From contig CAYWJO010000001.1 of the NCBI GenBank assembly GCA_964458565.1, positions 64,001-128,000 on the forward strand: a stretch of 64,000 bases of DNA. The letters run 5' to 3'. The notes beneath the pieces were generated by a model. It was given only the letters and a program-made list of their open reading frames with translations. It was not told the origin of the DNA and did not search any database. The translations under genes and the position numbers were made by a program. This document shows, in pieces, positions 6,610 through 47,820 of the stretch; positions within the stretch are counted from its first letter, which is position 1, and the number at the start of each line of letters is the position of its first letter. This DNA comes from an uncultured archaeon. Lineage in GTDB: Archaea > Asgardarchaeota > Thorarchaeia > Thorarchaeales > Thorarchaeaceae.

Positions 6610-7617
6610 ATGCTAGGGCGATTGCCTGCAGATCGACCCGATGACACAATTGTCTTAGTAAGTGATACGACAACTAATCCCGATTTCGGGTTTTCTGATC
6701 TTGATTCATTACCAATACAATATCTACTCAGAAATGGCGTGATATGTCTCGACAAACCAGCAGGACCAACAAGCCATGAAGTTGCGACATGGGTGAGAAA
6801 AATCCTGAAGTCTGATCGCGTCGGTCATGGAGGGACTCTTGATCCTGCTGTGACTGGAATATTACCAATGGGTATTGGAGATGGGACGAAGGTTATGCAG
6901 GCGTTATTACCAGCAGGCAAGGTGTACGTTTGCTTAATGGAGCTTCATGGTCCAGCAGATGAGTCAGATCTAAGGAGCGTAATTGCTGAATTTGTGGGAA
7001 AAATCTATCAAAAGCCCCCACTTCGATCGGCCGTCAAGCGTGTTCTTCGGGTCAGGGAAATTTACTATATTGATATTCTTGAAATTAAAGGTAGATTTGT
7101 ATTATTTAATGTTGGATGTCAGGCAGGTACATACATCCGGAAACTCTGCTTCGATATCGGAGAGGCAATTGGCCAAGGAGCGCATATGAGAGAACTACGA
7201 CGAACACGAGTTGGTAATTTCTTAGAAGATGAACATCTGTGTTCGTTGTATGATTTGAAGGATGCGTATGAGTTCTATATTGAGGATGGAGACGAAACAG
7301 AATTACGTAGATACCTTCTGCCAATAGAATTCGCATTGAAGCATCTCCCTATCATGAAACTTCGGGATTCTGCAGTAGATGCAATCTGTCATGGTGCAGA
7401 TCTTGCGGCTAGCGGTGTTGTGGAAATCTCTTCAGATATTATGAAAGGAGACCTCGTAGCTTTGAAAACCCTCAAAAATGAGGGGATAGCTATTGCGCGG
7501 AGTGAGCATCCAGCTTCCAAGATTTCCACGATGAGGAGCGGGATTGTAGCTAAGATTGAACGCGTGTTCATGGAAAGAGGACGATATCCACCTATGTGGA
7601 AAAAGAAAGAGGCGTAA
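6610..7617 (+). CDS. cbf5: H/ACA RNP pseudouridine synthase Cbf5
   Basis: DKPAGPTSHEV, GHGGTLDP (catalytic Asp), GTYIRKLC and a C-terminal PUA domain; uninterrupted. Confidence 0.96.
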   Translation: MLGRLPADRPDDTIVLVSDTTTNPDFGFSDLDSLPIQYLLRNGVICLDKPAGPTSHEVATWVRKILKSDRVGHGGTLDPAVTGILPMGIGDGTKVMQALLPAGKVYVCLMELHGPADESDLRSVIAEFVGKIYQKPPLRSAVKRVLRVREIYYIDILEIKGRFVLFNVGCQAGTYIRKLCFDIGEAIGQGAHMRELRRTRVGNFLEDEHLCSLYDLKDAYEFYIEDGDETELRRYLLPIEFALKHLPIMKLRDSAVDAICHGADLAASGVVEISSDIMKGDLVALKTLKNEGIAIARSEHPASKISTMRSGIVAKIERVFMERGRYPPMWKKKEA

Positions 7618-8099: not shown

Positions 8100-8442
8100 A
8101 GCCTTGGAGCGAAAGAGCAACTGACGGTACTCATCTTTTGATGAGAGCTGAGGAAGCTCCCGACTCATACCGGCACCAGTCCATTCCGGAAGGTGAGAGC
8201 CTTGCTCTGGAAACAGAAACGACACCCCCAGACAGGATTTGACAATGATACGGTGATTGAATCCGTTGAGGATCCATCTGGTCAGGATGAAACGGTCCAT
8301 CACTGGTGAGCAATCTCAAGAATACATCAATGAAGAGCCGGTCTGAGATGTAGGGTAGAGAGCATAGTTCGATGTTGCAAGCCCATTACATGGTAACGTG
8401 TCATGGGGGAACAGAATCGGGGCTACTCTTCGGACCAAGGCT
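8100..8442 (+). ncRNA. rnpB: Complete archaeal RNase P RNA (copy B)
   Basis: CR-I GAGGAAGCTCC; ACAGAAA and TGAAACG loop motifs; CR-V AACAGAATCGGGGCTA; P1 agccttgg/ccaaggct; P2 gcaac/gttgc; P4 agc(t)cccga/tcggggct. Confidence 0.92.
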
Positions 8443-17337: not shown

Positions 17338-17456
17338 TGGCGCCGAGGGTGAGATTCGAACTCACGCGTCCATATGAACAACAGCTTACTATTCAACAGC
17401 CTGTATAGACAATTGTTTCCAGGCTGTCGCCGTAATCCGGGCTTGGCTACCTCGGC
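17338..17456 (-). tRNA. tRNA-Ser(GGA) with encoded CCA and a 30-nt intron at 37/38 (17387-17416)
   Basis: Acceptor GCCGAGG/CCTCGGC; anticodon stem ACAGC/GCTGT with loop CT-GGA-A; long variable arm; T arm GTGAG-TTCGAAT-CTCAC; G discriminator then CCA. Confidence 0.93.
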
Positions 17457-19863: not shown

Positions 19864-20799
19864 TTATTGTGTAATTATCTTATATCTACCATTCTTATCG
19901 ATAGTGATACGCATTAAGTCACGTGCTAGAATTGTGTTTGGAAAAATAGATTTCGCTTCCTCCTCAATAACTGAACCATCCTCGTATCTTGGACTATAAT
20001 GAGTCAACACAAGCAAATCCACATTTGACTCAAGGGCGATAGTTGCAGCTTCAATAGAAGTCATGTGACCACGTGGAGGAGCTAGGTGGGAATGCTCGGA
20101 TGAGAACATTGCTTCTGAAATTAAAATATTAGCATCCTTCGATGCGTTTCTTAGAGCATCACATGGACGTGTGTCACCAGAGTATACGATTTTGATTGGA
20201 TTCGGAGGTGGCCCGGTTACCTGTGAGGGGTCTATTACAGTCCCGTCATCAAGGACCACTCTTTCACCATCAGAAAGTTTTCCCCATAAAGGACCTTGAG
20301 GTATACCGAGTTCTTTTGCCTTCTCAGGCAAGAAAACGCCAGTTGGTCTTTTGTGAATTATCTGGTATCCCAATGCATAACCACGATGCTCTACTTCAAA
20401 GGCATTTACAATCAGTTCGTGATCTTCGTACACAGGTCCAGCTTCAATACTATATACTATACTCTCAAATGTTGTTCCGAGATTGATAGTCGCCTGATTG
20501 ACTTTTACGTATTCTATCAACTCAGGAGGACCATAGATATTCAGAGGCTTGAATCGGCCAAGGAGTGAAAAACGAAGGAGAAGACCAGGTAATCCTAAAA
20601 TGTGATCAGCATGCATGTGTGAGATGAATATTGCCATTCGTTTATTTAGACCAATACCAGCACGTTCGATTTGCCTCTGTAGATCTTCACCACAATCAAA
20701 TAATAGAATCTGTCCTTCATACTGAAATGCGATAGATGGTAAGTTTCGTCCTTCAGTCGGCATGCTCCCGCCAGTGCCAAGGAAAATCACATCAATCAT
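19864..20799 (-). CDS. rnz: Ribonuclease Z
   Basis: FLGTGG, HMHADHILG, GP-rich exosite, SGDT and THYSPRY. Confidence 0.95.
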   Translation of the reverse strand: MIDVIFLGTGGSMPTEGRNLPSIAFQYEGQILLFDCGEDLQRQIERAGIGLNKRMAIFISHMHADHILGLPGLLLRFSLLGRFKPLNIYGPPELIEYVKVNQATINLGTTFESIVYSIEAGPVYEDHELIVNAFEVEHRGYALGYQIIHKRPTGVFLPEKAKELGIPQGPLWGKLSDGERVVLDDGTVIDPSQVTGPPPNPIKIVYSGDTRPCDALRNASKDANILISEAMFSSEHSHLAPPRGHMTSIEAATIALESNVDLLVLTHYSPRYEDGSVIEEEAKSIFPNTILARDLMRITIDKNGRYKIITQ

Positions 20800-43973: not shown

Positions 43974-44693
43974 TTAAGTATTTGAAGAATCATTCTCCTG
44001 GTTTTCTCTTCTTGATGCACTATATTCATTGTGTCTGGATATAAGTTCCATCTTCATCTCATCCGAGTATATCATTTGAAGAGATTCTCGTAATTGAGTG
44101 GGTATGTTCACTCCGCTTGACATGAGAGCACCGACTTCTCGAATCGAATCTAGGAAATCAGAGAGAAATTCTTGTCCATTATCCGAATGTAAAATTTGAG
44201 ATGCAGGTAGTAGAATGAATAATGCACCGGGATATAGCTGCTTTATGATTTCGAAGTTAGACTCATCAGGAAACCCACATGTAGAGACCAATACGAGTTG
44301 TGGTATCTTTCGGAATCTATGAGGGTGCGTTGTTTCCCCCTCATGAACAGCCATTTCGGGCAGACTGAAAGAAAAGGTTCGTTCTAGAAGACGTTGAATG
44401 TAATGAGTCACATTCCGGCCATACACAGGAGTGCCTAGTACAATAATATCCGCGTTTACTATTTGTGGGAGAAGCCAGTCCATGTCATCACGATGAACAC
44501 AGCGTCCGGGTGTTGTCCACCAACAGGTGAAACAGCCCCTACAGCCATTAATATTCAAATCAACAATATGATGCTTATTCACATCTGCCCCCCCATCCTT
44601 TGCACCAGTGATAAACTGGTCCAATAATAGATTCGTCGTGCTCTTCTCTTTTCGCGGGCTACCATTGAAGACAATGACCTTCATTATGACCAA
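43974..44693 (-). CDS. Flavodoxin-fold iron-sulfur flavoprotein / FMN reductase
   Basis: NGSPR, CRGCFTCW..C..DDM and GTPVY. Confidence 0.88.
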   Translation of the reverse strand: MVIMKVIVFNGSPRKEKSTTNLLLDQFITGAKDGGADVNKHHIVDLNINGCRGCFTCWWTTPGRCVHRDDMDWLLPQIVNADIIVLGTPVYGRNVTHYIQRLLERTFSFSLPEMAVHEGETTHPHRFRKIPQLVLVSTCGFPDESNFEIIKQLYPGALFILLPASQILHSDNGQEFLSDFLDSIREVGALMSSGVNIPTQLRESLQMIYSDEMKMELISRHNEYSASRRENQENDSSNT

Positions 44694-44826: not shown

Positions 44827-45462
44827 ATGACAAAATCTGTTATCAAACTAAATAGTCTAACAAGACATATCGATATAACAGTCCTGAGTGGAAGCCTCTT
44901 CTTAATTGGAGGTATCCAATGGTTTCTGGGCATTCTTGCTGCAGAGTCATGGTATGAAGGCTACAGTAGTCGTATCGATTATGTCAGTGAACTTGGAATA
45001 GGACCAACAGCGCTCTTATACAATCTATCTGTTTTCATAATGGGAGTGTTCGTTGTAGCTGGAGCTTTCTTTCTGTATAAGTCTCAAGAGAAACAACTTC
45101 TACCAACTCTGTTGACAATATCCGGAATCGGTGCTATGGGAGTGGGAATATTTCCAGGGTACCTACAACCAATGCACAGCATTTCTACCCTGTTGGCAAT
45201 TCTATTTGGAGCGTTTGCTGCAATTGCATCATACACTCATCAGAAGAAACCTATGTCCATCATTGCGATTGTACTTGGGTCAATGTCTTTGATATTGTCA
45301 CTTGTGTTTATTCCCTACCTAGGTCTTCCAACAGGTTCTACAGAAACTTTTCTTGGAATGGCAAAGGGATCATTGGAACGTTGGGCAATCTACCCCATAC
45401 TTGCTTGGATCATAGGCTTTGGTAGTTATCTTATTGGTTCAGCTGCCAATACTGAACAGTAG
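44827..45462 (+). CDS. DUF998-like membrane protein
   Basis: YS..DYVSELG, GVGIFP..H and G..ER..YP motifs. Confidence 0.75.
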   Translation: MTKSVIKLNSLTRHIDITVLSGSLFLIGGIQWFLGILAAESWYEGYSSRIDYVSELGIGPTALLYNLSVFIMGVFVVAGAFFLYKSQEKQLLPTLLTISGIGAMGVGIFPGYLQPMHSISTLLAILFGAFAAIASYTHQKKPMSIIAIVLGSMSLILSLVFIPYLGLPTGSTETFLGMAKGSLERWAIYPILAWIIGFGSYLIGSAANTEQ

Positions 45463-45526: not shown

Positions 45527-45541
45527 ATAAACTAGTCCTGC

Positions 45542-46711
45542 TTAGATGCACCGGTGTATAACTTCAGGTCCTGCTTCTTCGAACTCTTTCCTTGAGACCC
45601 ACATTTACCAGGCTACAACGGGAATCGCTGCAGCATTCTGGAAGGTCTTCAAGGATGCGAGTATTGAGCCACCAATCCAAACTGAGTACTGTCTCTCAGG
45701 AGGAGCGATGATTCGGACTTCAACATTCTCAGGTACAAGTTCGGTAATCTCCTTATGGAGTCGTTCCTTGAGTCCTGGGAACATGGTTGAACCACCAGAA
45801 AGTACGATGTTTGCGTATAGGTCACGTCGCAAGTCAACGTCACAGTCCTTGATAGCCTCGACAATATGCTCATCGAGTGGCTTGGTGTCAAGTCCAATAG
45901 CACTTGGGTTGAAGAACAACTCAGGTCCTGTGAACCTCTCTGCACCAACTGTGATAACGTCACCATCAGGGAGCATGTATGGCTTGTCTACACCAGCCTT
46001 GTCTGCTACTGTCCTCTCACGCTCAGGGTCGAGGGCTACGTAACAGAGTTTCTCCTTGATATCACGGACGATCTCTTTCTCTGCACCGCTTACGAATGTA
46101 TAACCTCTCTGTCTGAGAAGTCTTCGCAAGTACTCGGTGATGTCACGGCCTGCTAAGTCAATACGCTTGATTGCGTGCGTGATGGCGAAACCTTCGTACA
46201 AAGGTACGATGTGTGTGACTCCGTCACCGCTGTCAACAACCAGACCTGTGGTTCTGCCAGATGCGTACAATGATAGAACTGCCTGTGTTGCTACATATAC
46301 TGCAGGAACACCGAAATTCTCAAACATGACTGATGCCATGCGTTCTCTGTTTTCTCTAGGGTTGAATGGTGCCTCTGTTAGGAGGACTGGGTTCTCACTG
46401 GGATCTACTTTCAAGTCGTTATAGAATGTATAGCTCCAAATCTTCTCAATTGCATCCCAGTCGTCGATTACACCGTGGGTGATTGGGTAAACCAATCGAA
46501 GTACACCACGGAGGTTGATTGCTTCTTCGCCGATGTAATAGTCTCGCGTGTAGTGGTCGACGTCGGTCATGATACTCTCGTATCGTGGGTAACCGATGAG
46601 TGTTGGCCAAACACTTCGAGGCTGATCTTCGCCGGCGTATCCGTTTTTGCTGAGCCCAGTACCGTTATCAATAACGATGGGCTTAGCTCCAAGAAATTCG
46701 TCTTCAGCCAT
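45542..46711 (-). CDS. Actin (Lokiactin-type), two exons: 46711-45636 and 45605-45542; 379 aa after splicing
   Basis: [41 protein letters not shown] and [19 protein letters not shown]; the C-terminus [20 protein letters not shown] lies in frame after a 30-nt insert. Confidence 0.93.
45606..45635 (-). other. 30-nt bulge-helix-bulge (tRNA-type) intron in the actin coding sequence
   Basis: Minus strand: ..UU CCAG AA^U GCUGCAGCG AUUCC CGUUGUAGC CUGG UA^A AUG..; 4-bp central helix CCAG/CUGG, two 3-nt bulges and a 9-bp intron stem. Confidence 0.85.
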
Positions 46712-46819
46712 TTTATTTCGGTCCTCTTTTTATTCAATCAGTTCTTGTGCAAAAGTTGTGCAGCAAGACAATTGCAGCGAGTATGAGAACTCTATGCTAA
46801 GGTACAGTTCCTTCCGTTG

Positions 46820-46828
46820 CTATTTAAG
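46820..46828 (-). promoter_or_regulatory. Putative TATA box of the actin gene
   Basis: cttaaata on the minus strand about 110 nt upstream of the ATG, implying a leader of about 85 nt. Confidence 0.45.
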
Positions 46829-46989: not shown

Positions 46990-47046
46990 ATATAATATAT
47001 GTATCTTAAGAAATTGATTGAGATGTTTTGGCGAACTACAGATGAA

Positions 47047-47820
47047 ATGATTAGAGAGGAAATCGAATCAGTCCGAGCGAGACGTGTAATACTAGACCAA
47101 TTGGAGGGAGGTCCAAAGACAGGTAGTGAATTACGGGATAGTATAAGGAAGGATATGGCTGCACAAACTGTCAGGACAAAAGGAAAGAAGAAACTTAATC
47201 CTAAAGACTTCAAGGTAACAGATCCAAAACTCTACTTCAATACAAAGCATCTTGAAGGACAGGGGATTATTGCTAGTGCTAAGGTATCACAGCAGCGAAT
47301 ATTCGAGATGAATCCAAAGGCAATACATCCGGTGCGGAGAGTTCTAAACATCACAAGACCTATCGCACTCTTCACCTCACTATCCCGTGCAGAGGAACAG
47401 AGGTATTTTGTCAGATGGTTAGCAACATCAAAAGAGATTCAACCCAAGATGCTCTTTCTGTTTATCGATCCAACGAGTCTTCGAGGGGCATCAAAGAACT
47501 TAGATAGATACGTTCCCGACGGATCCAAGAAGAAGTGGGAGAGTGAGTGGATAGATATTGATGCAGAACAAGCGGGAGAAACTGGAACTGCAGGAGAGGG
47601 AAACATAAAGGGTACTTACCATCAAATAGAGCAAGTTCTTCTAGAAAAAATTGATGATTATACAGTAATCGTGGACCTCACTCAAGGAGTCACTACTATC
47701 CTAGCCGCACTCTCTCTCGTAGCAATTGATTATTCTCTGCAAGCCATTCATGTACTGCGTCCAAGAGGAGATGATGCAGTAGTATCATGGATATATCCGA
47801 GAGGATGGAGTGATAGATGA
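47047..47820 (+). CDS. N-terminal wHTH plus C-terminal CARF-like domain protein
   Basis: RRVILDQLEGGPKTGSEL...LYFNTKHLEGQGII wHTH; VIVDLTQGVTTILAALSLVA resembles the CARF DxTxG motif; start uncertain (46999 possible). Confidence 0.55.
   Translation: MIREEIESVRARRVILDQLEGGPKTGSELRDSIRKDMAAQTVRTKGKKKLNPKDFKVTDPKLYFNTKHLEGQGIIASAKVSQQRIFEMNPKAIHPVRRVLNITRPIALFTSLSRAEEQRYFVRWLATSKEIQPKMLFLFIDPTSLRGASKNLDRYVPDGSKKKWESEWIDIDAEQAGETGTAGEGNIKGTYHQIEQVLLEKIDDYTVIVDLTQGVTTILAALSLVAIDYSLQAIHVLRPRGDDAVVSWIYPRGWSDR

Follow-up and report, generated by a model that had tools for sequence, protein, structure and literature searches.

The stretch analyzed here (the window: 64,000 nucleotides (nt), positions 64,001 to 128,000 of contig CAYWJO010000001.1, assembly GCA_964458565.1) belongs to an uncultured archaeon of the Asgard family Thorarchaeaceae, and our subject is an actin gene on its minus strand that is interrupted close to the 3' end. 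The open reading frame (ORF) runs from 46711 to 45605 and encodes 368 amino acids: actin, then a foreign tail of 10 residues and a TAA stop. Directly past this stop, and in the same frame, lie the 20 C-terminal residues of actin (45604..45542). The first piece matches the Pfam Actin profile (PF00022, 410 positions) at 5-390 (E = 1.5e-121), the 20-residue piece at 390-407; the family match over both exons is thus full length, C-terminal segment included, and the gene is complete apart from the interruption. Identity to the actins of Thorarchaeota named in public records is 93-96%. A preliminary description of the window had noted an actin ORF with its missing C-terminus following in frame, which ORFs, translation and Pfam bear out, and had expected annotation as a truncated actin; the gene is indeed deposited as a 368-residue protein.

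If 45606-45635 is removed in silico, the sequence reads TFQ-K-MW and the product counts 379 amino acids, the length of intronless orthologues. These 30 nt are the ones that the preliminary description had derived from the archaeal cleavage rule, and relatives without the insert read TFQKMW as it had anticipated. We consider 45606-45635 very probably to be a bulge-helix-bulge (BHB), or transfer RNA (tRNA)-type, intron that interrupts the pre-mRNA for the main actin of this organism, because the insert is found in DNA, is absent from RNA at the exact borders, has a conserved and covarying structure, and occurs in a genome that encodes the enzymes. It is located 21 codons upstream of the actin stop. 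The features are as follows (structures from a minimum-free-energy (MFE) fold and an alignment of six alleles; X5 and L295 denote RNA-derived contigs, X2 a DNA run):

45636..46711, minus strand: actin exon 1, 358 codons plus AA, the first two bases of a split Lys codon (ORF and translation, Pfam, 100% match in RNA contigs).
45606..45635, minus strand: probable BHB-type intron of 30 nt, composed of U, a 9-bp hairpin with AUUCC loop, CUGG and UA (omitted in the X5 and L295 contigs, kept in X2 DNA).
45542..45605, minus strand: actin exon 2, the third base of the Lys codon plus 20 codons and the stop (Pfam 390-407; peptide conserved in intron-bearing and intronless relatives).
45638..45641, minus strand: 5' strand of the central helix, CCAG, in exon 1 (MFE fold), with the 5' bulge AAU next to it at 45637-45635.
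45608..45611, minus strand: 3' strand of the central helix, CUGG, in the intron, with the 3' bulge UAA next to it at 45607-45605, which is the in-frame stop of the unspliced message.
45612..45634, minus strand: intron hairpin GCUGCAGCG / AUUCC / CGUUGUAGC (MFE fold; pairing across 6 genera).
45643..45655, minus strand: exon-1 strand of the exon-exon (outer) helix (MFE fold; 81% of cells paired in 6 alleles).
45589..45600, minus strand: exon-2 strand of the exon-exon (outer) helix (MFE fold; 6-allele alignment).
45537..46787, minus strand: spliced actin transcript as seen in RNA-derived contigs, starting 76 nt ahead of the ATG and reaching 5 nt past the stop (contig ends, not mapped RNA ends).

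Salt-marsh metagenomes and metatranscriptomes contain the stretch, and four runs were compared (X2, X5, X9 and X11). Metatranscriptome run X5 yields an 812-nt contig over 45537-46378 that has 0 mismatches and omits 30 nt at 45606; coverage by X5 contigs is restricted to 45537-46777, limits that resemble those of a transcript. The same form is seen in contig Ga0393225_009461 of the Joint Genome Institute (JGI; L295, 1221 nt), which equals 46787..45537 with 0 mismatches and a single 30-nt gap. Its junction reads TTCCAGAAAATGTGGGTC, the exon-exon junction of the spliced form being TTCCAGAA joined to AATGTGG. Protein P0130 (379 amino acids), for which L295 is the sole source contig, shows 0/379 differences from the in-silico spliced product, and the truncated 368-residue actin, from a 255-kb contig (NCBI and JGI), is on record as well. 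In DNA run X2, whose sample differs from the possible source, a 2449-nt contig crosses 45300-46298 without a gap. The insert is therefore retained in independent DNA, and precisely the 30 nt predicted are missing from the RNA-derived contigs, in agreement with excision between bulge nucleotides 2 and 3 and exact joining of the exons; both the DNA insert and the spliced message had been forecast. Coverage by runs X9 and X11 comes from relatives, with mismatches, and is confined to conserved portions of the gene; it is uninformative on the junction.

Given that the insert is seen in an independent DNA run and at the same codon in five metagenome-assembled genomes (MAGs) of other studies, we see practically no room for an assembly or scaffolding artefact, even though EF-1alpha in the same assembly does contain a scaffolding gap whose flanks are duplicated. 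It might also be argued that a near-identical, co-occurring strain with an intronless allele is the source of the spliced-type contigs (by carry-over of its DNA, or from its RNA), the intron-bearing gene itself being truncated and decaying; in DNA such an allele would show TTCCAGAAAATGTGG at the exon-exon junction. RNA libraries can contain DNA, and the patchy presence of the intron within genera (g2, g8 and g10) makes a polymorphism conceivable. Nonetheless, 0 mismatches are found over 1221 nt, the closest intronless full-length protein among the matches listed differs at 17/379 residues, and the genome has no second close actin (its one other actin-like match is 42% identical). Moreover, the spliced-type contigs end at transcript-like limits whereas DNA contigs extend over more than 100 kb, and exon 2 is perfectly conserved in protein behind the stop in six genera, which argues against decay. 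We hold this explanation to be very improbable.

To describe the structure, the MFE fold of 81 nt around the junction was computed, with 200 shuffles as control. At -32.5 kcal/mol the fold is more stable than the shuffles, which average -18.05 +/- 3.3 (z = -4.4) and of which 0/200 fold as well. A 4-bp central helix, CCAG/CUGG (45641-45638 / 45611-45608), joins the exon-1 end to the intron end; next to it are a strict 3-nt 5' bulge AAU and a 9-bp intron stem GCUGCAGCG/CGUUGUAGC with loop AUUCC. Up to this point the fold agrees with the preliminary description. Its short exon-exon stem is recovered as a helix, though a longer one than claimed: 12 bp with one bulged A. Its clean 3-nt UAA bulge, on the other hand, does not stand, as the MFE fold leaves 7 nt unpaired on the 3' side (UAAAUGU). 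A strict UAA bulge takes one extra U-A pair, which is possible yet invariant in all alleles, and we therefore class the motif as a BHB of the relaxed kind, in which the two opposite-strand bulges enclose a 4-bp helix and the 3' side is relaxed. The exon-exon complementarity (AAGACC/GGGUCU, coding K-T and W-V-S) is present in intronless genes too, so that the site appears pre-adapted to close a BHB.

Other intron classes do not fit. A self-splicing (group I/II) or spliceosomal intron was considered and rejected: the intron measures 30 nt, starts with UGC and ends with GUA, so there is neither a ribozyme core of hundreds of nt nor a pair of GU...AG borders, and Rfam has no family match at the intron locus.

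Several points weigh against the reading as a spliced BHB intron. In the MFE fold the 3' side departs from the canonical 3-nt bulge. Placement of the intron at 45607-45636 is equivalent to 45606-45635 because both boundary bases are A, so that the cut sites are fixed to within 1 nt only. The X5 and L295 contigs end alike at the 3' side (45537) and are probably from the same campaign; they are treated here as two assemblies that may derive from one data set, and JGI sample 3300036164 could not be confirmed as a metatranscriptome. Since the RNA evidence consists of assembled contigs, it gives no ratio of spliced to unspliced message and cannot show that the unspliced form is absent. Finally, the DNA support for the insert is one run (X2), which leaves room for an intronless allele in an otherwise identical strain.

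Comparison with relatives was based on the 86 genomes of the family and 400 genomes of the phylum. About 65 family members (most of the family genomes with a match, setting aside those cut by contig ends) carry an actin that is uninterrupted over its 3' part and reads ...SLKTFQKMWVS(R/K)..., identical to the predicted spliced product. A 30-nt insert at the same codon is present in six genomes of six genera: our own (g1), G002 (g2), G006 (g3), G007 (g4), G014 (g8) and G025 (g10). All six inserts contain an in-frame stop. In five of them a TAA or TGA spans the 3' junction; in G014 the stop is a TGA that falls within the central helix (the bulge there being AAA). Downstream of the stop, exon 2 is conserved at the protein level in all six genera. 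The split Lys codon is AA/A in 6/6 intron alleles, its third base being the last bulge nucleotide, and AAG in all seven intronless genes examined.

Covariation was assessed on gap-free alignment A1 of these alleles (a small sample of six related sequences), with helix partners slid by 1-3 columns and 500 shuffles as controls. Standard pairs are formed by 88.7% of cells, against 36-49% in the slid controls, and by 96% of cells in the intron hairpin. Six pairs have changed on both sides (2/4 in the central helix and 4/9 in the hairpin), and 0/500 shuffles reach any of five covariation measures. A clear case is G014, where synonymous changes in exon 1 (TTC CAG to TTT CAA) are matched by the intron (CUGG to UUGA), which retains the pairing as UCAA/UUGA. 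Taken on its own, this covariation speaks for an RNA structure maintained in evolution with good but not overwhelming force. The insert at the same codon in other Thorarchaeota, with compensatory stem changes and an intact exon 2, is what the preliminary description had proposed to look for.

The same alleles bear on a further alternative, in which the insert is retained and translated by read-through or recoding of the stop, resulting in an actin with an 11-residue insertion. The length of the insert (a multiple of 3) and the in-frame exon 2 would allow this. Yet the insert is missing from the RNA contigs, its peptide is not conserved across alleles while the RNA pairing is, the stop varies in identity and position, and sister inserts of 31 nt in EF-1alpha and ahcY shift the frame; we give translation of the insert hardly any credence.

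A maximum-likelihood tree of actin coding sequences contains a supported clade (96/96) consisting of (G006,(own,G025)) and (G014,(G016,(G017,G013))). The intron occurs in four members of this clade and in none of the three nested g8 members, so that the intron must have been lost precisely at least once, or else gained additional times. The placement of G002 and G007 is left unresolved by the tree; its supported branches force at least two intron changes.

Some candidates at the site were dismissed. G048 and G051 at first appeared to have larger insertions, which were rejected as contig ends: in both (L067/L068; G048:C205 and G051:C12) the contig stops in the 3' part of actin and the rest is found at the end of another contig. 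Such breaks could reflect strain heterogeneity, perhaps in the presence or absence of the intron. G241 and G285 (family f22), tested for split matches, gave only actin paralogues of about 40% identity, and a metagenome pattern scan anchored on both exon borders was too loose, with no actin gene among the loci fetched from the matches listed, and added no intron alleles. Plant actin genes presumably have an intron near codons 355/356, a resemblance in position to which we attach no weight; a literature search on it found nothing.

The preliminary description implied that the actin intron is unique, which is not the case: EF-1alpha and ahcY in the same genome carry similar inserts, known from DNA only (the RNA evidence concerns actin alone). 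In EF-1alpha (contig C45) there are inserts of 31 nt (20259-20289; L082:1470-1500) and 30 nt (20426-20455; L082:1637-1666), each with a hairpin and a 4-nt helix in a BHB-like arrangement and both with a G-AUUUC-C loop like that of actin alleles. Profile TIGR00483 is covered from 2 to 54 by one piece of the gene and from 55 to 136 by the next, which contains one TGA. A third break (C45 ~20578-20696) was rejected as an intron, as it is a run of N with a duplicated flanking peptide EFEAGIGPGGQTKEHAYL, that is, a scaffolding gap. In ahcY a frame-shifting split (profile 1-349, then 346-416) coincides with a 31-nt insert at L293:2543-2573 (~C1:187509-187539), whose removal restores the conserved GHPSEVMDLSF; the junction is situated within a stable hairpin flanked by a GGUCACC/GGUGAU helix.

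EF-1alpha was also inspected in ten relatives (L282-L292). One insert each is present in G014 and G024 and none in G002, G006, G007, G025, G013, G016 and G004, while G017 was left unscored (its match is split between two contigs); this distribution is unlike that of the actin intron. Gene-specific, patchy presence suggests frequent gain or loss.

For tRNA genes, ARAGORN with introns allowed predicts 32 tRNAs in the whole genome, of which 22 are interrupted, with lengths scattered from 10 nt up and 30 nt as the commonest single value; many further tRNA genes are probably hidden by non-canonical introns. One of the predictions, a tRNA-Thr(GGU) with a 30-nt intron, is located in the window at 17338-17456 (minus strand) and is missed by the default tRNA scan and by Rfam at gathering score.

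Two scans addressed the number of such inserts. A strict genome-wide BHB scan (4/4 central pairs, a perfect stem of at least 6 bp, and an ORF-merging filter) gave counts near background and no peak at 30 nt, so it offers no estimate of the number of mRNA introns; the filter lost the actin intron itself because of its late in-frame stop. A scan for hairpins with an ATT[TC]C loop recovers the actin intron, both EF-1alpha inserts and a few tRNA-like candidates, the majority of its other hits being noise-like.

The similar inserts in EF-1alpha, ahcY and tRNA genes suggest that the actin intron belongs to a turning-over population of micro-introns rather than being a dedicated actin switch. Such a switch, which would add to the reading as a BHB intron, would have the ratio of spliced to unspliced message set the amount of functional actin, the stop keeping the unspliced product truncated and harmless. 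The idea draws on the in-frame stop in all six alleles (at a different codon in G014, UGA in the central helix with an AAA bulge) and on the role of negative regulator proposed for the cbf5 intron (PMC2738675). However, a stop would be present by chance in about 4 in 10 random in-frame inserts of 30 nt, and the alleles are all homologous. Only the spliced form is assembled from RNA, the intron is missing from most of the family's actins, and the EF-1alpha and ahcY inserts look similar both with and without preservation of the frame. Those in EF-1alpha are spread differently among relatives, which looks like neutral or selfish intron turnover. Overall, we think a regulatory switch unlikely.

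Whether the population extends further is evenly poised in our judgement: Thorarchaeota and several Asgard classes may harbour turning-over BHB micro-introns of about 30 nt in highly expressed genes (actin, EF-1alpha, ahcY) and in tRNA and ribosomal RNA genes, in which case mRNA splicing by the enzymes of tRNA splicing would be routine in gene expression of these relatives of eukaryotes, which have no nucleus.

The enzymes that the preliminary description took to be at work are encoded by the host. A two-subunit EndA is present as an alpha-like protein of 187 amino acids (C1:27246-27500) and a beta-like protein of 212 amino acids (C5:17476-17736), each with N- and C-terminal EndA domains. In a pairwise alignment of these paralogues the catalytic His is found in the shorter (DHAPFLV) and not in the longer (ASADQLV), a difference that, judged from the alignment, fits a catalytic alpha and a structural beta subunit of an (alpha-beta)2 enzyme. 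RtcB is encoded once (C2:139736-141046; 589 bits). Asgard EndA is reported to be an (alpha-beta)2 enzyme, and its L1 loop gives broad specificity and permits relaxed motifs (PMC5829648); for cbf5, cleavage occurs between bulge nucleotides 2 and 3 (PMC2738675).

On this basis we propose the following course of events. The transcript would fold such that CCAG at the end of exon 1 pairs with CUGG at the end of the intron, with the 3-nt bulge and 9-bp intron hairpin on one side of this central helix and the relaxed bulge and long exon-exon helix on the other. The heteromeric (alpha-beta)2 EndA would cut past the second nucleotide of each bulge, and RtcB would join the exons, the 30-nt intron probably being freed as a circle. 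The Lys codon AA/A would thereby be restored, yielding a 379-residue actin laid out like its intronless orthologues (TFQKMW). Unspliced mRNA would instead yield the 368-residue actin, with the 10-residue foreign tail and minus the C-terminal 21 residues. That EndA and RtcB are the acting enzymes, that the intron is circular, and that splicing is constitutive rather than regulated is what we infer.

As to the surroundings, actin has a divergent neighbour at 46999-47820 (plus strand; a 273-residue protein without Pfam match) and a convergent one at 44827-45462 (plus strand; a DUF998 membrane protein), followed by an FMN-reductase-like flavoprotein at 43974-44693 (minus strand). Among these immediate neighbours no homing endonuclease or mobile-element gene adjoins the intron. 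The RNA-derived contig begins at 46787, and about 34-40 nt upstream of this base, at 46821-46827 (minus strand), is a TTAAATA element. It could serve as the TATA box of the actin promoter should transcription really start a few nt further upstream than the contig, whose ends do not map RNA ends. Elsewhere in the window, cbf5 (6610-7617, plus strand) is one uninterrupted ORF of 335 amino acids spanning the whole NCBIfam Cbf5 profile, and an archaeal RNase P RNA (8105-8437, plus strand; Rfam, 142 bits) is found just downstream of it.

The observations have practical as well as conceptual consequences. Splicing of the tRNA type reaches actin, the emblematic eukaryotic signature protein, in an Asgard archaeon, with evidence at the RNA level. 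Asgard actin, and apparently EF-1alpha and ahcY, are deposited in truncated or fragmented form, which biases gene catalogues as well as phylogenies and estimates of completeness. Gene calling in Asgard genomes needs a BHB-aware step. Hypotheses on the origin of the nucleus invoke a conflict between slow splicing and fast translation, and an archaeon that splices abundant mRNAs without a nucleus makes this conflict testable. If the micro-intron population is real, it would offer a living case of splicing in competition with coupled translation. Questions that arise are how much truncated actin is made, whether ribosomes are excluded from the unspliced message, and whether the exon-exon helix masks this region.

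Among known systems, the nearest is the BHB intron of crenarchaeal cbf5, reportedly the subject of work by Watanabe in 2002 and Yoshinari in 2006. As of 2009, cbf5 was the only gene for which archaeal pre-mRNA splicing had been confirmed (Yokobori 2009, PMC2738675). In the literature searched (most subscription journals were outside the search) no BHB intron is reported in Asgard protein-coding genes or in actin, nor any coding-sequence case after 2009. Like the actin intron, that of cbf5 (PMC2738675) is short, lacks an ORF and interrupts a coding gene (16-44 nt there, 30 nt here). Both have a relaxed BHB at the exon-intron borders that is cut between the second and third bulge nucleotides, a broadly specific, hetero-oligomeric EndA, a patchy distribution through gain and precise loss, and host genes mis-annotated as truncated or frameshifted. 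The differences concern host and context: here the gene is actin, a eukaryotic signature protein, and the phylum Asgard/Thorarchaeota; the intron is placed 21 codons before the stop and not at a catalytic codon; and it is one of several similar inserts of about 30 nt across the genes of the genome. It does not belong to the cbf5 lineage, which is marked by an intron in cbf5 at the codon of the catalytic Asp. In actin the cbf5-type mechanism is represented independently, in another gene and another lineage.

Asgard tRNA genes are reported to be heavily interrupted (PMC11291895; bioRxiv 10.64898/2026.10.13.758758), and the ARAGORN counts given above agree with this. The papers on these introns treat tRNA introns only, and mRNA and actin are unmentioned in the preprint (bioRxiv 10.64898/2026.10.13.758758). 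The actin intron shares their motif, size class and presumed enzymes; in contrast, its host is an mRNA, so that splicing must be coordinated with translation.

Two more distant cases involve mRNA. A BHB intron in the 5' untranslated region of a Haloferax volcanii mRNA is said to have been described by Schwarz et al. in 2020: it too is an EndA substrate in mRNA, but it resides in an untranslated region of a euryarchaeon and not in coding sequence. In eukaryotes, HAC1/XBP1 mRNA is spliced unconventionally in the cytoplasm by the endonuclease IRE1 together with the ligase RtcB or Trl1. By analogy, the actin case resembles it in the protein-only, spliceosome-independent removal of a short mRNA intron, in joining by a tRNA ligase and in the altered C-terminus, and might provide an evolutionary context for the RtcB-dependent mRNA splicing of eukaryotes. 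It is unlike HAC1/XBP1 in the cutting step: there IRE1 acts on twin hairpins with 7-nt loops and is regulated by stress, whereas in actin the substrate is a BHB and the presumed enzyme EndA.

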